10,826 nt of DNA, taken from assembly GCA_051652765.1 (NCBI GenBank), contig JBOFUV010000127.1:1-10826 (forward strand), read 5' to 3'. Of the stretch, positions 1-9,457 are shown piece by piece. How positions within the stretch are numbered: position 1 is the stretch's first letter; each line of letters opens with the position of its first letter. Source of the stretch: Microcoleaceae cyanobacterium (lineage in GTDB: Bacteria; Cyanobacteriota; Cyanobacteriia; Cyanobacteriales; Microcoleaceae). The translations under genes were made by a program, and so were the position numbers. The notes under the pieces were generated by a model. That model searched no databases. It saw nothing but the letters and a program-made list of their open reading frames with translations, and was not told the DNA's origin.

Positions 1-197
1 TTGTTCAGGGGGGGGGAAGTACTTCGATGATCAGTCGCTTAGGGCAGGTGATTTATACTGCAACAAGCCTAAATCCTGAAGCAAAAGTTTGGATTTCTGT
101 TGAGGGAGAACCTTTAAAAGTACTGGGAGGAGAGGGATTGGAAATTCCTCAACCGAGTACTCGTGCCAATTTTTCAACTGAATTTCAGATGGAATAG
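1..197 (+). CDS. 3' end of a GerMN-domain protein (5'-truncated by the window edge)
   Basis: Not in the ORF track. The frame from base 3 reads [64 protein letters not shown], with TAG at 195-197. GGGS-SM--RL-Q--YT-T...V-I-VEG...GGEGL matches the cyanobacterial GerMN C-terminus as I recall it. Confidence 0.85.
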
Positions 198-220
198 TTA
201 GATGGAATAGTTAGATGGAA
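187..220 (+). repeat. 13-bp tandem repeat (AGATGGAATAGTT x2.6) spanning the GerMN stop codon
   Basis: Exact copies at 187-199 and 200-212, plus a partial AGATGGAA at 213-220. Confidence 0.95.
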
Positions 221-530: not shown

Positions 531-2360
531 ATGTTTGAAACCGTTTTTTGGAGTGCTTTTGTCGCTGGGATCATCAGTGCTTGCTCAATGCCGTTAGGAG
601 CGTTAACTTCCCTATTTTGGCAGCCTAGAAAGCGAGTATTGGCATTTTTGGTTGCATTCGGAGGAGGAGCTTTACTGGCTGCTATAGTCATCGATCTAGT
701 TGGCAATGTTAAAGAAAAAGGCCATATTTTAGAGTTGATCATTGGCTCAATTATTGGGAGTTTGTTCTTCACTCTAGTCAATCAAATCGTGAATAATTCA
801 GGAGGTTTTTTACGCAAGCCATCGACTCTTTTAACTCACCTAAATCAACAAAAAAGCCGTAGCTTTAAACAGCGAATGGGTCAGTTACAACGGCTGGAGT
901 TCTTTCGAGATTTGCCCCAAGAGGTACAACAAAAACTGGTTCAGCTTCTATGGTTTGTGAGCTATCCCAAAGGCACAACTCTCTATCGTCAAGGCGATCC
1001 GAGTGAAAGTCTCTATATTATTGATGAAGGGAAAATAGATTTATTAGATCCGCAAGCCGAATTGTCTTCATTAAAGCATCTCACAACCAATGATTTATTT
1101 GGTAAATTCGCATTTTTTACTGGGAGTCCTCATCAAACCAGTGCTGTTGCGATGGACGAGACTAAACTAGCAGTTTTATCTCGTTCAAATTTTGAAGAAT
1201 TATTAGAAACTTCTCCTTATCTAGTGGATGAAACTGAACAATATATCCAGGGGGAGGAAATCGCCGATTATCTGCAAAAGCATCAGGGATTAAGTGCAAC
1301 TGAAGTTCAAGCATGGGTCAATCTAGCCATCAAAACCATCCGTCAGGACAGAAAAATTCCGCCAGCAGTGGCCATAGAGCAGAAAGAAGCTGAATTTCTG
1401 AGATTAGCCCGTCAGATTCGCCAATTCCCTGTGTTTAGCTATTTGCCGCAAGAAGACCTTGAAGAAATTGCGGCTCGTTTAATCTATCGGCCCATAGAAA
1501 GTGGTTATGCTTTTTTTCAACCGAGTGAAGCGGCTGATCGTTTGTACCTGCTTCATCAGGGACATGTCGAGATTTTGTATCCAAATCATCTGAACACCCC
1601 TTCTCTAGTTTTGACCGCTGGGGATGCTTTTGGAGAACTAGCCTTCATTACCTGCGCGCTGCATACTGTAACCGCGATCGCCAAAACAGATGGAGCGGTA
1701 TGGGTGCTGAGACGGCAAGACTTTCTCGAAGTCCTGCAGCAGTCTAAAAACCTGGAAGAGAGTGTCAAGACCTTTGTGGAAACTCCCCGAATCAAGGACT
1801 ATCTTCAAAAGCGACAAAACTTTGATCCGACTAAGACTACTGAATGGGTCAGGCAAGCTTTGGAAAATATGAACGCAGGGCAATTAATGCCTGCGGTAAC
1901 AACGATGTCTGAGGATATTGGCTCCCATAACAACGCCCCGATGTCAATTTGGCTAGGCTTACTCATGGATTCAATTCCTGAAGCGTTAACCATTGGAGCG
2001 CAACTGTCCCATCATCCCATCAGCACTTCACTCCTGGCTGGGCTATTCATCGCCAACTATCCAGAAGCGCTGTCAAGTTCAAGGGGAATGAAAGAGCAAG
2101 GCTTTTCTAACTCCAAGATTTTGACAATGTGGACTTCTATTATGCTATTAACTGGGATTTTATCGGCTGTTGGTAGTGTGCTGTTTGCGAGTGCATCAGA
2201 ATCAGTGATTTCATTACTAGAGTCTACGGCGGCTGGAGCCATCCTAACTGTGATTGCAGAAACCATGCTACCAGAAGCCTATGCCAAGGGAGGTTCAATT
2301 GTCGGATTATCTACCTTATTGGGCTTTCTTGTCATTATTGTGATCAAAAGCCTGGAATAA
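531..2360 (+). CDS. ZIP (ZupT/GufA-like) metal transporter with two inserted cyclic-nucleotide-binding domains
   Basis: aa 1-90 hold three hydrophobic segments with ZIP-like motifs (SMPLGA, AFGGGALLAAIVIDL). aa ~119-235 and ~296-412 are CAP/cNMP-fold domains (LYRQGDPSESLYIIDEG...FGKFAF; FFQPSEAADRLYLLHQG...FGELAF). aa ~469-609 form the ZIP C-terminal half (LMDSIPEA, IANYPEALSS, AAGAILTVIAETMLPEA). Confidence 0.85.
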   Translation: MFETVFWSAFVAGIISACSMPLGALTSLFWQPRKRVLAFLVAFGGGALLAAIVIDLVGNVKEKGHILELIIGSIIGSLFFTLVNQIVNNSGGFLRKPSTLLTHLNQQKSRSFKQRMGQLQRLEFFRDLPQEVQQKLVQLLWFVSYPKGTTLYRQGDPSESLYIIDEGKIDLLDPQAELSSLKHLTTNDLFGKFAFFTGSPHQTSAVAMDETKLAVLSRSNFEELLETSPYLVDETEQYIQGEEIADYLQKHQGLSATEVQAWVNLAIKTIRQDRKIPPAVAIEQKEAEFLRLARQIRQFPVFSYLPQEDLEEIAARLIYRPIESGYAFFQPSEAADRLYLLHQGHVEILYPNHLNTPSLVLTAGDAFGELAFITCALHTVTAIAKTDGAVWVLRRQDFLEVLQQSKNLEESVKTFVETPRIKDYLQKRQNFDPTKTTEWVRQALENMNAGQLMPAVTTMSEDIGSHNNAPMSIWLGLLMDSIPEALTIGAQLSHHPISTSLLAGLFIANYPEALSSSRGMKEQGFSNSKILTMWTSIMLLTGILSAVGSVLFASASESVISLLESTAAGAILTVIAETMLPEAYAKGGSIVGLSTLLGFLVIIVIKSLE

Positions 2361-2481: not shown

Positions 2482-3180
2482 ATGTACGCTTTAATTTCCC
2501 GCGAAAAGATTCAACTTCCCCCTGGAACAGTTGTGCGAATGCTGTGTTCTTGGCAGGACTATAAAATATTGGCCGAAAGTCGGGGCGACGGTTCAATTCC
2601 TCGGATGAAATATCATGATGGAGAAGTTCTACTGATGAACCCACTGCCAGTTCATGGTCGTAACGCCAATATTTTGGGTGATATCATTAAGGTTTTATTG
2701 GATAGTCAGAATCGCAACTATGAAGCCTTTACTCCAATTACAATGGAACTCCAAGAAGCCGGAGGAATTGAACCGGATTATTGCTTTTACATTGATAATT
2801 GGGGAAAAGTTGTTGGGCGAGATCGATTGAATTGGGAAGTCGATCCTCCCCCTGATTTAGTGCTTGAAATTGACGTGACAAGTTATACAAATGCAGAGGA
2901 TTACTTACCCTATAGAGTGCCAGAAGTCTGGTTGTTTAAAAAAGATAAACTGACCATTCATCGACTCCAAAGCCATCAATTACGCCATCAATTACAAAGT
3001 CATCAATTACAGAGTCAAAAACAAGACCCTGCTGAACAGCAATCTTATCAATTGCAAACGATGAGCCATTTTTTCCCTGAAATCGACTTGCATTGTCTAG
3101 TCCAGCAGTGCTTAGAATCCGCTAGCGAGAAGGGTTCAGGGGCTGCGATTCGAGAATTGCGGCAAAGATTAACCCAGTGA
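2482..3180 (+). CDS. Uma2 family (DUF820) putative endonuclease, PD-(D/E)XK fold
   Basis: Motifs SWQDY, RMKYHDGEVLLMNPLPVH, GIEPDYCFY, PPPDLVLEIDVTS and Y..YRVPEVWL are typical of cyanobacterial Uma2 proteins. Confidence 0.92.
   Translation: MYALISREKIQLPPGTVVRMLCSWQDYKILAESRGDGSIPRMKYHDGEVLLMNPLPVHGRNANILGDIIKVLLDSQNRNYEAFTPITMELQEAGGIEPDYCFYIDNWGKVVGRDRLNWEVDPPPDLVLEIDVTSYTNAEDYLPYRVPEVWLFKKDKLTIHRLQSHQLRHQLQSHQLQSQKQDPAEQQSYQLQTMSHFFPEIDLHCLVQQCLESASEKGSGAAIRELRQRLTQ
2974..3010 (+). repeat. In-frame short repeat CATCAATTAC x3 (HQL repeats) inside Uma2
   Basis: Copies at 2974-2983, 2986-2995 and 3001-3010, spaced 12 and 15 nt, encoding SHQLRHQLQSHQLQS. Confidence 0.9.
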
Positions 3181-3216: not shown

Positions 3217-6200
3217 CTATCGCCGACCTTCCAACCAATAAGTTCTCATGTAGCCTTTTCCTTTCACCTCAATCACCCCTCGCTCCTCAAACCAATAGCG
3301 GTGGTCAAGTAAGCGTTTTGTGTTTTCTGTCACTTGAATTTTGCCTGCAATTCCCCTGGACTCCATGCGAGAGGCAACATTCACTGCATCTCCCCACAAA
3401 TCATAGATAAACTTGCGGGTTCCAATCACTCCTGCAACAACAGGCCCAGTATTAATCCCAATCCGCAATTGCAAAGGCTTACCATCGACTCGACTAAAGC
3501 GGGTGATAGCATGTTGCATCTCTAAAGCCATTTCTGCTGAAGCTTCGGCATGATCACTGCGAAGGTCAGGAATGCCGCCTGCAACCATGTAGGAATCCCC
3601 AATGGTCTTAATTTTCTCAAGGTGATGTTTTTGAGCGAGTTCATCAAAAACGGAAAAAATTTCATTCAGCCAATCGACTAACTCTTGAGGTGAAATTTGG
3701 GCAGAAAGCTCTGTAAAGCTCACAATATCTGCAAATAAAATTGTGGCTTGATCAAAGCGATCCGCTATTGATTGCACATCTTGCTTGAGCCGTTCGGCAA
3801 TTGACTGAGGCAGAATGTTTTGCAACAGTCGTTCTGACTTATGTTGCTCAACTTGCAGCGCGTCCAGCATTCGCTTGCGTTCTGTGGTGTTGTGAGCAAC
3901 CCAGATCACCCGCTCATCCGGCAGGGGAGAAACTGTTGCTGCAAACCAGGTAACTTCGTCAGTCCCAGAGTCAAGGAGATTGTACGGGTTTTGGCTGGAT
4001 TCATCATACGGCTTGAAAAGAGGCAAACTATACTCAATCGTTTGAGTTTTGCCCGTTTCCAAAACTCTCAGAATATGGTGATAAAACAGGCAGGCTTGAG
4101 TCGTAGGAAGAACTTCAAAGACAGTCTTCCCAAGGCAGCTAGATGCTGGACTATACAGTGCATCTGAGTTTGTTGTAATAATTTTCTGATACCGTCCCTC
4201 TCCATCAAAGACTGTAATCACGTCTGTCATGGCAGCAAATAAAGCTCGGAGTTCTGCTTCCGAAGCTCTCAAGGCTGCCTCTATCCGTTTCCGTTCAGTG
4301 ATTTCTCGAACTAGCTCGGCAGTCCGTTCATCAACTCTGAATTCTAAAGCATCCATGGCCTCCTGCAGGGACAATTCTGCCTGTTTGCGTTCTGTGATGT
4401 CGATGACACTGCCTTCGTAGTAGAGCACATGACCGCCGCGATCGCGAACTGCAAAGGCATTCTCCGAGATCCAGTACAACTCCCCATCTTGACGGCGAAT
4501 CTGAGACTCAAAGCCCATAACTGATCCGTGTTCATCAATCAGGCGAATAAATTCTTGCCGTCGATTCGGACTGACGTAGAGTTGTCCAGCAATATTGACA
4601 ATGCTTTCAACCATCCTCTCAGGGGAGTCATAGCCATACATATGGGCCAAGGCCGGATTGGCACGGAGATAGCGACCATCCGGAGTTGTTCTGAAGATCC
4701 CTTCAATCGCGTTTTCAAAGATACTGCGGTAATCGGCTTCAGTCTGCTTCAGGGCTTCTTCAGCCTGCTTGCGTTTGGTAATGTCAATCCCGACAAAAAA
4801 AGCCGCCTGACTATTGTTATATTTGTGGGCCGCAATCAAAAAGTTGTGGGGTTGACCATTGATTAAAGACAGAATTTCCCGATCACTGTCCTGATCGGGT
4901 CTAGAAAAGAAATCCCGGACAAATTCATTGAACTGGGGACTGCTGTCTAAAAAGCCAATATAACGATTAATAAATGTTTCGGGGGGAAGATCGAAGATAT
5001 CCGCCAGATATTGATTCACCCCCAAATAACACAAATCTGAACTAATCCAAGAGACCATGCCAGGAATCACCTCTAGGATTGTTTTCAGTTGATCCTGAGA
5101 GGCTTTTAAGGCCGCTTCTGCTTTTCTGCGGGCAGTAATATCAATCCCGATCACAAACGCTTCTTGATCTTGATTATACTTCTGGGCAATGATCCAGTAA
5201 TGGTGCTGCTCTCCTTGAACCAAAGCGGTCACTTCTTGGGATGCATCTCGGTTTGAAATGGCAAACAAATGTTGAATAAATTGATTGAACTGGAACCCGC
5301 CCCCAAGGAACCCGATGTGCTGATCGGTGAATTGTTCTCGCTGTAAGTCGTGAATATCTGCCAGTCGCTGGTTTACCTCTATGTAGGTCGAGTCTGAACG
5401 CACCCAGGAAACCGTCCCAGGTACCGCTTCCAGCACGGTTTGCAATCGAGCATTGGCAGTTCGCAACGCCTCCTCGATTTGACGACGCTGAGTAATATCA
5501 ATTCCAACAATAAAAGCCGCTTGATTGTGATCATATTTCTGCGCCACAACCAGATAATGACGCATCTCCCCGCCGCTGACCTTGGTAAAGACTTCGCGAC
5601 TGGCTTCTAATTCTGGACTCTCAAACAGATCTTGGACAAAATCACTAAACTCAGAACTGGTGCCCAAGAACCCGATATCCTGACCTGAAAAGTCTTCACG
5701 GGGCAAGCCAAAAATATCGGCTAGCCGCTGATTGACCTCGATGTAGTGCAAATCCGAACGAATCCAAGATACTGTACCGGGCACTGCACTCAATACAGTT
5801 TGTAGCCGCATGTTGGCGATTTGCAATTCTTCACGGGCGTGCTGATGTTCGATAATTTCTTTCAGCAGTTGCCGATTGGTCACTTTTAGATGGTTCGTTC
5901 GTTCTTCAACCAACTGCTCTAGCTGTTGATTGATCTTTTCCAGTTCTGTTTCATACTGCTGCCGTTTTTCAATTTCTGCCTGCAACTGCGCCCTTGCCGC
6001 TTCTAGCTCAATCGACTTTTGCTCCAGTTCTTCCGCTCGCTCAATACTTTGACTTACTTCTGCCAGGAGATGAGTCACCATCTCTCTGGGGTTGAAATGA
6101 TTTTCCTCAAACCCCAACCAAGGCAAGGGCCGAATTCGTTCTGGGCTAGTATAAATCACGTTAAATTGACCCTCAGATTGAGCTTGACCAATACGACAGA

Positions 6201-7191
6201 CTTTTGAGATATGCTGATTCGGCTGCAAACAAACAAACCCTCCAGGAGAAGCCAAACACAATCCATAAGCTGCTGCCCGGACTCGATCCAGATCAAAGGA
6301 ACGGGCCAACTCCACGGCCTGTTTCCAAAAATAAACCTGCATATAGGCAGCCTCGATCGGGTCGCTGGTGACTCGATCCTCGCCATAGTGAGCCTTGAAC
6401 CGTCTGACAAACTCCAGATTCTCAGATGTATCCAAACTCTGAAAGTAACTCCAGCAACTCAAATGTCCAGCGGCGGCATCTCCAATACTGTGCAATTCCG
6501 TTTCGGAGACAGAGGTTGCCAGAATTGTAATATCGTCCGCTCTCAAGCCCGATTCCTTGAACTGGCGATAAAAGGCAACATTACTGTCCCCATTGATAGT
6601 ATTGAAAATAACATCGGGCTGGGCCTGCCGAATCCGGGCAATAATCGAGCCAAAGTCCTGAGCTCCCAGAAAAGGATAGGCTTGCCCAACGACTTCTCCG
6701 CCATGAGCTTTGAGTTGCAGCTTGACTAACCTACTCACCGTGTGGGGAAACGTGTAGTCCGAACCAATCAAAAAAAAACGCGATCCCCGATGCTGGAGCA
6801 ACCAGTTCACCGCAGGCTCAACCTGCTGATTCGCGCACAGTCCAGTATAAAATATGTTAGGTGAAGCTTCTAACCCCTCATATTGAACCGGATACCAAAG
6901 TTGCTTATTAAACTTTTCGACAACGGACTTGACCGCAAGCCGATCCCTAGAAGTCCAGCAGCCGAATAAAGTTGAAACTCCATTTTGCAAGATTAACTTT
7001 TCTGTTTTCTGAGCAAAGCAAGCTGGGTTTGAAGCACCATCCTCAACAATGGCCTTGATTGAACAGCCTAAAACTCCTCCAAGTTGATTAATCTCAGCGA
7101 TCGCCATCAGAGCCGCATCTCGCAAGGGAGATTCGCTCATGGCCATTGTCCCGCTGAGGGAGTGCAAAATACCAACGGATACACCTGACAT
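3217..7191 (-). CDS. Class III adenylate cyclase with N-terminal UrtA/AmiC-like binding domain, coiled coil and five PAS domains
   Basis: aa 1-360 are urea/amide-binding-protein-like (VGILHSLSGTMA, GCWTS, YPVQYEGLE, NQQ, GSDY.FP, NTINGDSN). aa ~375-460 are coiled coil. PAS domains lie at ~459-578, 579-697, 698-816, 817-940 and 977-1110, ending in DIT.R or NTTER. The cyclase at ~1145-1320 has ILFADIVSFT, KIKTIGDSYM and YDLWGDAVNVASRMES: two metal Asp, the ATP-specifying Lys/Asp pair, and catalytic Asn/Arg. No signal peptide or TM segment is visible. Confidence 0.92.
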   Translation of the reverse strand: MSGVSVGILHSLSGTMAMSESPLRDAALMAIAEINQLGGVLGCSIKAIVEDGASNPACFAQKTEKLILQNGVSTLFGCWTSRDRLAVKSVVEKFNKQLWYPVQYEGLEASPNIFYTGLCANQQVEPAVNWLLQHRGSRFFLIGSDYTFPHTVSRLVKLQLKAHGGEVVGQAYPFLGAQDFGSIIARIRQAQPDVIFNTINGDSNVAFYRQFKESGLRADDITILATSVSETELHSIGDAAAGHLSCWSYFQSLDTSENLEFVRRFKAHYGEDRVTSDPIEAAYMQVYFWKQAVELARSFDLDRVRAAAYGLCLASPGGFVCLQPNQHISKVCRIGQAQSEGQFNVIYTSPERIRPLPWLGFEENHFNPREMVTHLLAEVSQSIERAEELEQKSIELEAARAQLQAEIEKRQQYETELEKINQQLEQLVEERTNHLKVTNRQLLKEIIEHQHAREELQIANMRLQTVLSAVPGTVSWIRSDLHYIEVNQRLADIFGLPREDFSGQDIGFLGTSSEFSDFVQDLFESPELEASREVFTKVSGGEMRHYLVVAQKYDHNQAAFIVGIDITQRRQIEEALRTANARLQTVLEAVPGTVSWVRSDSTYIEVNQRLADIHDLQREQFTDQHIGFLGGGFQFNQFIQHLFAISNRDASQEVTALVQGEQHHYWIIAQKYNQDQEAFVIGIDITARRKAEAALKASQDQLKTILEVIPGMVSWISSDLCYLGVNQYLADIFDLPPETFINRYIGFLDSSPQFNEFVRDFFSRPDQDSDREILSLINGQPHNFLIAAHKYNNSQAAFFVGIDITKRKQAEEALKQTEADYRSIFENAIEGIFRTTPDGRYLRANPALAHMYGYDSPERMVESIVNIAGQLYVSPNRRQEFIRLIDEHGSVMGFESQIRRQDGELYWISENAFAVRDRGGHVLYYEGSVIDITERKQAELSLQEAMDALEFRVDERTAELVREITERKRIEAALRASEAELRALFAAMTDVITVFDGEGRYQKIITTNSDALYSPASSCLGKTVFEVLPTTQACLFYHHILRVLETGKTQTIEYSLPLFKPYDESSQNPYNLLDSGTDEVTWFAATVSPLPDERVIWVAHNTTERKRMLDALQVEQHKSERLLQNILPQSIAERLKQDVQSIADRFDQATILFADIVSFTELSAQISPQELVDWLNEIFSVFDELAQKHHLEKIKTIGDSYMVAGGIPDLRSDHAEASAEMALEMQHAITRFSRVDGKPLQLRIGINTGPVVAGVIGTRKFIYDLWGDAVNVASRMESRGIAGKIQVTENTKRLLDHRYWFEERGVIEVKGKGYMRTYWLEGRR

Positions 7192-7798: not shown

Positions 7799-9457
7799 TT
7801 AAATCATCCGGCATTCTATTAGTTGAGCGGCCATAATATCCGCATGTTGCCACCACTTTCCATTGGTTTGCACCCAGATACGAGAAGGCAAATGATCCGT
7901 TGGAGCAGAGAGCTTAAATTTAAATCCATCCGTGGGATTATGCGGATTGTAAGTCAACCAACCGATGTGATCGCAAAATGCACCGTAATCTCCCTCAAAC
8001 TTTTGGTAGATCCGGGCTTGAACACTGAACCCAAACCGTCCACCGCTATACTTCACCCAGAGTCGGTCTAGGGTTCTCAAATCCTCACAGGGTAAATCTT
8101 GCAATTCTCTGGGATGGAGATACTGATTTCTGGACTTTTTGAGGGTCTGACAGAGCACCGCCCAGGTTTCTGTATCTGCGTCTTTCCATCGACGGCTCGC
8201 GAGGAATTTTTGCAGGAGAGTATAGTCAACTCCAACGGCAGAAATCAACTGATCTTTGGGATGCTGGCCCAATCCAGGAATCCAGCGCCCCAGGGTTGTA
8301 GAAATCCTGGATGCAGGAGGTTGAGTAACAGAGACTTTTTTACGAGGAGGAGGAGTCAGTAGATTAATCGCAGGTGATTTTGGGGTTTGGGAATGGGGGA
8401 CTGTCAAGGCTCCCAAGACTTGAGTAGCGGAACTGTAACGTTGATTGAGCTGAGTTGCGACTAACCGATCCAAAATTTCTTCCAAGGGTGAACTCACACT
8501 GCGATCGCCCGTAAGAAACTGTCGCCAAACCCATTTTTCCGCCACCACATCATACAAATTCCAGGGAGAAACTCCCGTCATTAAATGCAAGCAGGTCACG
8601 CCCAAACTGTAGAGATCACTAGCTGGAAAGGCTTTGCCCCGATGTTGTTCAGGAGCCATAAATTCTGGACTGCCAATAATTGTTCCCGTCTGCATCGCCA
8701 TTGTTCCGGTAAACAGCTTGGCCACGCCAAAGTCAATCAAAACCATTGGGCTATTTTTGTTGGAGGTGAAGGATCTAGGGCTTGGCGCAGGCGGAGCTGA
8801 AAATAGCTCCCGAACCACCGCCTGACCCTGAATGGCTTCTACATCCTCTAGAATTTTAGTTTTCATCTCCGCTAAATTTGGGGGATTGTCATGCACTCGA
8901 ACATCTTGAATCGGCAGAGGTAGAACGGGGGCTTGAGGGGATCGCCGCATGATATTGGCAGGTTTAATATCTCGATGAATAATCTGATGCTCGTGAATAA
9001 ACTTTAAAACAGGCAACAGTCCCTGAAGTATTTGCCAAATTTTAAACTCACTAAATACTCCTGTTGCCTCTAACTCCTGAGCTAGGGTTTTTCCGGCAAT
9101 ATATTCTTGGACTAAAAACAGTTGTTGGTCTTGTTCAAAATGGGCGAGAAGCTGAGGGATTTGGGGATGTTTTCCCAGTTCATCAAGTCGTACTGCTTCG
9201 GCTTTGAAAAGTTGAGCAGCTTTGTTGTAACTGTCGATACTCTGACTTTGAAACTGAAACTGTTTAATCACACAGGGAGGTCTGGAGGGCAGGTGTTCAT
9301 CAACGGCTAAATAGGTTTTACCAAAGCCCCCCTGACCAATAGGATGTAGGGGACGGTAACGATTTTGCAGCAAAATAACAGCTCCACAACTTTGACAGTA
9401 TTGAGCTGTCTCTACGTGGCTGGGGTTGGCACATCCAGGGTTAACACAGTAGCTCAT
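7799..9457 (-). CDS. Hanks-type Ser/Thr protein kinase with N-terminal 4-Cys Zn ribbon and C-terminal GUN4 domain
   Basis: CVNPGC...CQSCG prefix. Kinase motifs GQGGFGKTY, CVIKQ, HRDIKPANI, IDFG, GSPEFMAPEQ and SDLYSLG. A Pro-rich linker leads to the GUN4 domain at aa ~408-550 (DYTLLQKFLA..RWKDADTET, LPCEDLRTLDRLWVKYSGGRFGFSVQ, IGW, AP..HLP). Confidence 0.93.
   Translation of the reverse strand: MSYCVNPGCANPSHVETAQYCQSCGAVILLQNRYRPLHPIGQGGFGKTYLAVDEHLPSRPPCVIKQFQFQSQSIDSYNKAAQLFKAEAVRLDELGKHPQIPQLLAHFEQDQQLFLVQEYIAGKTLAQELEATGVFSEFKIWQILQGLLPVLKFIHEHQIIHRDIKPANIMRRSPQAPVLPLPIQDVRVHDNPPNLAEMKTKILEDVEAIQGQAVVRELFSAPPAPSPRSFTSNKNSPMVLIDFGVAKLFTGTMAMQTGTIIGSPEFMAPEQHRGKAFPASDLYSLGVTCLHLMTGVSPWNLYDVVAEKWVWRQFLTGDRSVSSPLEEILDRLVATQLNQRYSSATQVLGALTVPHSQTPKSPAINLLTPPPRKKVSVTQPPASRISTTLGRWIPGLGQHPKDQLISAVGVDYTLLQKFLASRRWKDADTETWAVLCQTLKKSRNQYLHPRELQDLPCEDLRTLDRLWVKYSGGRFGFSVQARIYQKFEGDYGAFCDHIGWLTYNPHNPTDGFKFKLSAPTDHLPSRIWVQTNGKWWQHADIMAAQLIECRMI

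Follow-up and report, generated by a model that had tools for sequence, protein, structure and literature searches.

We analysed a 10,826-nucleotide stretch of contig JBOFUV010000127.1 from a Microcoleaceae cyanobacterium (henceforth the window), focusing on the gene at positions 531-2360 of its forward strand, a 609-residue open reading frame with no internal stop codon that encodes a ZIP-fold membrane protein. An earlier reading of the DNA alone (the sequence-only reading) had proposed that the first three transmembrane segments (TM1-3) of a ZIP metal transporter are separated from the last five (TM4-8) by a soluble insert with two CAP-like cyclic-nucleotide-binding (CNB) domains, and this architecture of ZIP TM1-3, a duplicated CNB fold and ZIP TM4-8 is confirmed by hydropathy, two Pfam cNMP_binding matches and a structural model. 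The parts of the gene, with equivalents in BbZIP of Bordetella bronchiseptica where these matter (aa, residues of the protein; nt, positions in the window), are:

531..2360, + strand: whole gene, 609 aa, encoding ZIP TM1-3, CNB-A with its hairpin, CNB-B with its hairpin and ZIP TM4-8
534..797, + strand: ZIP TM1-TM3, aa 2-89
801..818, + strand: GGFLRK motif at the cytoplasmic end of TM3, standing where BbZIP has its DxxxPHxH zinc sensor
819..890, + strand: helix joining TM3 to CNB-A in the AlphaFold2 model, aa 97-120
882..1250, + strand: CNB-fold domain A, aa 118-240; ribose Glu replaced (K192), His201 (nt 1131-1133) in place of the phosphate Arg
1251..1385, + strand: helical hairpin 3' of CNB-A with conserved Y247-L248 and W262, belonging to the duplicated unit
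1407..1778, + strand: CNB-fold domain B, aa 293-416; pocket G-E-L-A-F...H-T with His378 (nt 1662-1664)
1782..1910, + strand: helical hairpin leading from CNB-B to TM4, with Y424-L425 and W439
1935..2351, + strand: ZIP TM4-TM8, aa 469-607
1968..1982, + strand: TM4 site motif D480-S-I-P-E484 (BbZIP H177-N178-L-P-E181)
2052..2066, + strand: TM5 site motif A508-N509-Y-P-E512 (BbZIP Q207-D208-V-P-E211)

Hydropathy averaged over 124 homologues revealed eight hydrophobic segments, three of them preceding aa 85 and the other five following aa 470, giving the eight-TM, 3 + 5 arrangement with a cytoplasmic TM3-TM4 loop that had been predicted. An AlphaFold2 model built from a 124-row alignment (predicted local distance difference score 86.1; predicted template-modelling score 0.60, which leaves the relative placement of the domains uncertain; low confidence in the last linker, aa 460-468) superposes through residues 4..609 on BbZIP (PDB 7z6m) with Z 24.7 and a root-mean-square deviation of 2.4 A over 226/238 residues, so that both membrane halves model as one BbZIP fold. 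The next structural matches are CNB domains, with Z up to 16.9, well under that for BbZIP; Foldseek with the whole model had CNB proteins only among the matches listed, and the ZIP match came from a wide VIA search. Sequence profiles recover the fold less readily. The sequence-only reading had expected a Pfam Zip match (PF02535) split around two CNB matches (PF00027): the two cNMP_binding stretches are indeed found (E 3e-36 in the 609-aa protein), but Zip is matched in the C-terminal half only, at aa 457-605 and 31.6 bits, below the 35.1-bit gathering cut-off that 10/18 relatives scanned pass, and the N-terminal half has no match. The protein passes no NCBIfam model, and its C-terminal half does not match the NCBIfam ZupT model. 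The N-terminal half alone does not match BbZIP significantly (E 8.7), nor does an N-half profile match the PDB, and a direct PDB search with the C-terminal half alone found no match. A 12-row profile, mostly of relatives lacking the insert, aligns with BbZIP TM1-8 at E ~1e-11.

The insert (aa ~99-466) is a gap-free tandem repeat of a unit composed of a CNB domain, a C-helix and a YL..W hairpin, the copies sharing 28% identity over 160 aa (E 1e-24). The CNB (PF00027) fold is present with its beta-barrel, N-terminal helices, pocket helix and B/C helices. Its location in the TM3-TM4 cytoplasmic loop was correctly assigned by the sequence-only reading, and in BbZIP this loop is regulatory, as the accessible part of PMC10256678 describes. 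Within the GGFLRK motif, G91 and R95 are invariant in all 213 rows of the family alignment, including relatives without an insert, and W439 of the CNB-B hairpin is conserved in single-CNB relatives too.

A chimera or assembly artefact was ruled out because a word-index search yielded 353 homologues among 8000 candidates (the best 120 being listed) and because 145 of the 268 proteins compared have both membrane halves and two CNB domains. An exhaustive search found at least 150 homologues, two of them shared with the proteins already compared. Another 58 of the 268 carry one CNB, forms of ~250 aa lack the insert, and longer CNB-inserted ZIPs have one to three, often degenerate, CNBs (P0243, P0257, P0264, P0249, P0250, P0255), four of the longer forms being named as protist proteins (Vitrella, Gymnodinium, Balamuthia, Pyramimonas). 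The insert-less ZIPs at L017-L028, of ~250 aa, have no His in their D-G-I-P-E / S-N-I-P-E site, carry a basic loop, GAKHRKR, and look like an uncharacterised ZIP subfamily by sequence; in two of them (L022, L028) a stop or a frameshift interrupts the reading frame. The membrane-half tree places nine single-CNB proteins, with moderate support, inside the two-CNB group, which does not fit a simple stepwise family history.

The two-CNB members with a named source belong to many cyanobacteria and to Gammaproteobacteria, Methylococcales among them. Their occurrence is patchy: 5/401 genomes sampled from the phylum, 5/144 in the window's family and 20/401 in an order-level sample at E < 1e-70, with one sister genome lacking a match and another holding a copy of 46% identity. 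The sequences closest to the window protein (76-78%) are from other cyanobacterial metagenome-assembled genomes (MAGs), and together with the patchiness this suggests that the gene has moved laterally; its G+C content at third codon positions (0.39 versus 0.45 +/- 0.06 for the genome) gives no compositional sign of recent transfer. Broken two-CNB copies with a frameshift, stops or an IS4 insertion (L120, L121, L152, L150, L065) are consistent with a dispensable, mobile gene. A plasmid collection held no match at E 1e-30, a search of sequencing runs listed no RNA run with the gene, and the ESM Atlas returned same-family clusters only, unnamed or labelled cAMP-binding.

The 12-row profile alignment places BbZIP H177, N178, E181, Q207, D208 and E211 at D480, S481, E484, A508, N509 and E512, E240 at T541, H275 at E577, E276 at T578, and the entrance residue S106 at D55, a position that is acidic in 211/213 family rows. 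Across the 213 rows D480 is kept in 213, E484 in 207, N509 in 210 and E512 in 212, while position 481 is Gly in 103/121 members of the clade. The His-containing binuclear site and His loop sensor of the ZupT/GufA type are thus absent, replaced by D-S-I-P-E / A-N-Y-P-E, T541 and GGFLRK; the second-site ligands are weakened relative to BbZIP (N178 to G/S, E240 to T), and the transport site consists of Asp, Glu and Asn with no His. According to the available text of PMC10256678, the M1 site of BbZIP uses H177, and the regulatory M3 site, in the TM3-TM4 loop, uses D144, H149, H151 and E276; none of the M1 or M3 His residues is kept in the window protein. Introducing His at the entrance and the site makes ZIP8 favour Zn more strongly relative to Cd, Fe and Mn (PMC10372143), so an all-oxygen site would argue for the opposite. 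We infer a single oxygen-only site (D480, E484, N509, E512) that would favour a harder cation, and zinc is a doubtful cargo because the site has no His.

The pockets of the two CNB domains likewise depart from the canonical type. Pocket A of the window protein reads G-K-F-A-F-x-x-G-S-P-H, lacking the Glu and carrying His instead of Arg, and pocket B reads G-E-L-A-F-x-x-x-x-x-H. Among two-CNB proteins the Arg position of B domains is His in 108/120 and Arg in 3/120, and in a set richer in close cyanobacterial homologues His stands there in 140/145 B and 125/145 A domains. At the Glu position, 40/120 B domains have Glu, which is outside the five commonest residues of A domains, where Lys, Arg, Trp and Gln occur; at position +3, Phe replaces Leu in 99/120 B and 102/120 A domains. 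Pocket B has Gly in 120/120, Ser or Ala at +2 in 119/120 and Thr or Ser following the His in 104/120, and is better conserved than pocket A. By contrast, single-CNB relatives keep a canonical pocket (Glu 72/82, Arg 65/82), and the window genome has 15 other CNB domains, of which 8 have Arg, and none His, at the Arg position. The His/Phe pocket is thus clade-wide among two-CNB proteins. In a domain tree A and B form separate clades joined in one group (support 0.92), indicating a single origin of this pocket, no later than the duplication, and its conservation since; in P0183 a canonical domain was duplicated independently. The charge of the cyclic phosphate is neutralised by the pocket Arg, which is missing in the trypanosome protein kinase A regulatory subunit (PKA-R), where the ligand has also switched (PMC10959531). 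In pocket B, the Gly, Ser/Ala and Thr/Ser around the phosphate position may form a putative oxyanion site, in which contacts on the phosphate side would be kept and the ribose contact would be dispensable. CooA carries a heme-ligating His near the Arg position. CooA-like heme binding was set aside because the pocket helix, deleted in CooA, is present in the model.

Genes neighbouring relatives of the window gene were annotated at 68 loci from metagenomes, 2 from MAGs and 40 from cyanobacteria and confirmed with NCBIfam, and a ten-gene phosphate set was scored (pstS, pstC, pstA, pstB, ppk1, ppk2, ppx, phoD, phoX and a choice-of-anchor/phytase-like phosphatase). Truncated loci with one visible CNB (L045, L048, L089, L101, L121), L073 and the short-flank loci L003-L033 were left out before counting, and they contain no hit. 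A phosphate gene lies within 2 kb at 18/78 two-CNB loci against 0.53 expected from the window's genome (2860 genes, 0.9% per gene); by cluster at 85% DNA identity the count is 15/62, and among full-flank loci 7/29. Single-CNB loci gave 1/26, a convergent ppx. Among fresh loci, 6/20 (19 genes) have a phosphate neighbour (binomial p 1.5e-8), bringing two-CNB loci to 24/98 versus 1/26 for single-CNB loci (Fisher p 0.025), p-values that are too favourable, since the six fresh positives are relatives of earlier ones. The arrangements observed are:

L106: PhoB-like regulator, pstS-C-A-B, then the ZIP gene after a 61-bp gap
L114, L120: pstC-A-B-ppk1-ZIP, overlapping
L034, L041, L149, L152: pstS-ZIP; L150, the same with IS4 between; L074, pstS-ZIP separately
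L037: pstC-ZIP
L068, L069, L072: ZIP-pstS(CAB)
L104, L143, L145, L105, L142: ZIP gene divergent from ppk1, pstB-ppk1 or pstS
L046, L050, L086, L088, L058: phosphatase or ppk2-family neighbours

Several of these neighbourhoods look operon-like, pstSCAB-ZIP for example, and their varied arrangements on separate tree branches argue for repeated association. Genes for breaking down glycogen and for fermentation form a second theme among the neighbours (eno, glgP, xfp, ackA/pta, pgm, pgi, pyk, lactate permease), and their enzymes use inorganic phosphate (Pi) or Mg2+. An SphR box scores 15/16 at four related loci (L040, L105, L107, L111) versus 13/587 background regions, too weak a signal to use. 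Ion-related neighbours occur as single cases, among them a convergent EF-hand protein gene (L114, 5422-5979) and a divergent gene that we take to be Fur-like (L148, 7993-8589).

Since its relatives repeatedly adjoin phosphate-uptake and polyphosphate genes, the window protein probably serves the phosphate economy rather than cAMP-gated zinc uptake. The reading that we favour, tentatively and as one that may well be wrong, is a ZIP-fold carrier of a hard divalent cation tuned by a phosphate-bearing ligand other than cyclic AMP (cAMP). The elevator carrier would move Mg2+, Mn2+ or Ca2+ rather than Zn2+, possibly with phosphate, and the cation would serve as a polyphosphate counter-ion or as a cofactor for phosphatases and phosphoryl-transfer enzymes. 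In the ZIP elevator TM3 belongs to the scaffold and TM4 to the moving domain (PMC10256678 and PMC9873690, each in part), and the two CNB domains, threaded between scaffold TM3 and transport-domain TM4, would tether both. Pocket B would be their main binding place for a cytoplasmic phosphate-bearing ligand, whether Pi, pyrophosphate or a phosphorylated metabolite, and the CNB C-helix and YL..W hairpin might then pull on TM4, whereby the elevator stroke would be either permitted or blocked. The proposal of the sequence-only reading that a sensor regulates transport stands in part: the module is strongly conserved and probably regulatory, but with His for Arg in both pockets cAMP or cyclic GMP (cGMP) is not its likely ligand, and the alternative it allowed for, another ligand, is the likelier branch, gene context pointing to phosphate.

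Several observations weigh against this phosphate-tuned cation carrier. Pocket A drifts, its Arg position being His in 78/120, Tyr in 14 and Arg in 8, and pocket B of the window protein still has its Glu. About three quarters of two-CNB loci (74/98) have no phosphate neighbour, the six fresh positive loci are related to earlier ones, the gene set was defined only after the neighbours had been seen, and the background is a single genome; these may be mobile accessory genes sharing islands. The window genome already has MgtE. The window copy itself has no phosphate gene within the window or upstream, and a crude consensus scan found no SphR box upstream of it (12/16 versus a background median of 12, the genome's own pstS scoring 15/16). 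Its phosphate link is therefore one of descent, the window protein lying in the sister group of the pstS-ZIP clade (support 0.93; tree of 222/225 rows).

Phosphate might instead be the cargo, as a metal-phosphate complex or by cation symport, the protein acting as a low-affinity Pi importer or release valve gated by an internal Pi sensor and, beside pstSCAB and ppk, balancing high-affinity uptake against polyphosphate turnover. The operonic position after pstB or ppk1 and beside pstS would suit such a role; an anion might fit into the space freed by the missing second metal site (G/S481, T541), a His/Asp/Glu metal relay at the cytoplasmic exit has given way to the invariant R95, TM5 carries S515-S516-S517, and the window genome matches neither Pit nor PhoU. 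Against this, the core site has kept the acidic character expected for a cation, R95 and the site are common to single-CNB and insert-less relatives without phosphate context (1/26, and 0/12 with short flanks), and other carriers tested have Pit (2/4) and PhoU (4/4), so a general replacement of PhoU or Pit by the ZIP was rejected. We know of no ZIP that carries phosphate, and consider it unlikely that a ZIP carrier was re-purposed for phosphate or metal-phosphate and gated by a duplicated CNB turned from cAMP to a Pi or pyrophosphate sensor. Were it so, bacteria would have an analogue of SPX-gated phosphate transport, and the protein would supply a missing route for exchange of phosphate and counter-ions in polyphosphate cycling; its ancestors would lie in a cAMP-gated ZIP family, just as unstudied, with members in protists.

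The insert could also be a module without a ligand, its pockets self-filled as in CNB-homology domains, or a metal sensor whose conserved His residues bind the transported metal, serving feedback or regulation by a partner. Replacement of the BbZIP M3 residues D144, H149, H151 and E276 (N84, no His, T578) would leave a vacancy for such a sensor, the pocket B His is strongly conserved and the +3 Phe could fill the pocket; yet each domain has one conserved His with no second conserved His or Cys nearby in sequence, the retained pocket hydroxyls suggest a bound oxyanion and the module alone leaves the phosphate context unexplained, which makes this reading rather improbable.

Binding of cAMP or cGMP to both domains to gate metal uptake, as first proposed, is improbable. 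The fold is intact, pocket B retains its Glu, the single-CNB relatives keep Glu and Arg, among them BAA18856.1 of Synechocystis, and an adenylate cyclase gene lies 0.9 kb downstream, but Arg is left at the phosphate site of only 8/120 A and 3/120 B pockets and the Glu site of A is Lys, Arg, Trp or Gln. The cyclase gene is convergent, the Uma2 gene lies between, and of the related loci scanned just two (L080, L096) have a cyclase-family neighbour; a functional tie was discarded on these grounds. Cyclic-nucleotide gating of the window protein is thus doubtful, and the cAMP story probably belongs to its single-domain relatives. Very improbable, finally, is a transceptor with little net transport, whose ZIP core would detect an ion outside the cell and pass the signal on by way of the CNB modules (to PhoR/SphS or Pst, for example): the L106 gene does follow pstB, where phoU commonly lies, an MgtC-family gene is found at L105, MgtC acts on PhoR (PMC6658541, in the part available) and several BbZIP relay residues are lost, but entrance D55, the site and small interface residues are conserved even in insert-less forms, there is no output domain and PhoU is present in the other carriers tested.

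The window copy, the sole Zip match in its genome (99.97% complete), is flanked on one side by the 3' end of a gene continuing from contig C60 (window 1-197, + strand, 139-bp exact overlap), presumably for a GerMN-like lipoprotein, and on the other by a Uma2 gene. A scan for its promoter and terminator gave chance level. The genome has four pstS copies, ppk1, ppk2, ppx and phoX. A perfect 13-bp tandem repeat of 2.6 copies (window 187-220) spans the stop codon of the 1-197 gene, and tandem repeats at 2959-3024 (+ strand) encode a His/Gln-rich insertion in the Uma2-family protein. The cyclase gene (3217-7191, - strand) encodes 1324 aa with a UrtA/AmiC-like amide/urea-binding domain, a coiled coil, several PAS domains and a class III adenylate/guanylate cyclase; the UrtA/AmiC-like domain has no apparent leader, its Pfam match beginning at aa 5, making the protein a candidate cytoplasmic urea/amide-sensing cyclase. 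The gene at 7799-9457 (- strand) encodes a Ser/Thr kinase preceded by a 4-Cys prefix and ending in a GUN4-like domain. At the related locus L105, the MgtC-family gene (2517-2906) lies upstream of the ZIP gene in the same direction, a single case.

We conclude that the window encodes a real, conserved and uncharacterised ZIP-fold variant whose clade points to phosphate physiology. The phosphate-gene context of two-CNB ZIPs is the new element of this analysis, and from it a concrete hypothesis can be drawn for a so far unassigned membrane protein that occurs in cyanobacteria and proteobacteria; if the favoured reading is true, CNB folds would gain a new ligand class and the ZIP fold possibly a new cargo. 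The family provides a natural series, with no insert, one canonical cyclic-nucleotide pocket or two His-type pockets, that is suited to testing how a ligand domain controls an elevator transporter, and a single-domain member is present in the genetically tractable Synechocystis PCC 6803.

In agreement with the sequence-only reading, which knew of no characterised transporter with this architecture, the open-access literature searched describes neither a CNB-inserted ZIP nor a ZIP with a folded small-molecule sensor, nor the ZIP nature of the single-CNB proteins; the available parts of PMC9278863, PMC3814192, PMC13192868 and PMC6658541 do not contain the architecture. With the GufA-type prokaryotic ZIPs BbZIP (PDB 7z6m, 5tsa, 8ght) and E. 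coli ZupT the window protein can be compared directly: it shares with BbZIP the eight-helix fold, the TM4/TM5 xxxPE motifs and a regulatory element in the TM3-TM4 loop, but only 18% identity, and across its family H177 becomes D, N178 G/S, Q207 S/A, D208 N, E240 T and E276 T, while the loop, which in BbZIP is ~20 aa long and holds the DxxxPHxH sensor, lacks that sensor here and is ~370 aa long with two CNB folds. Single-CNB ZIPs (Synechocystis PCC 6803 BAA18856.1, P0294; ~30-36% identity) have the same D-x-I-P-E / S-N-x-P-E core, GGFLR and insertion point and differ in their one domain, its canonical G-E-x-A-L..P-R-S-A pocket and the near-absence of phosphate context (1/26). BAA18856.1, which we take to be Slr0593/SYPK (its gene order beside recA and fur fits), is reportedly a cAMP binder. 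In the part of PMC3516471 available, slr0593 is tabulated as a 'cAMP binding membrane protein', transiently down in iron deprivation. MloK1, SthK, HCN, SLC9C1 and the CNB-homology domains of KCNH also place a CNB fold on a membrane transport core (Z 13-17). CNNM is another protein with a CNB-homology domain. In these channels and transporters the CNB domain follows the membrane core at the C-terminus, whereas in the window protein it is inserted within the fold, between the scaffold and elevator halves, with a His/Phe-type pocket. The CNB pocket of NtcA is re-purposed for 2-oxoglutarate. That of the nucleoside-binding trypanosome PKA-R has been re-purposed for a ligand other than a cyclic nucleotide through the Glu, Ala and Arg positions (PMC10959531, in part). 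The window clade differs from both in its substitutions, Arg to His and Leu to Phe with a dispensable Glu, and in placing the altered pocket within a membrane transporter.

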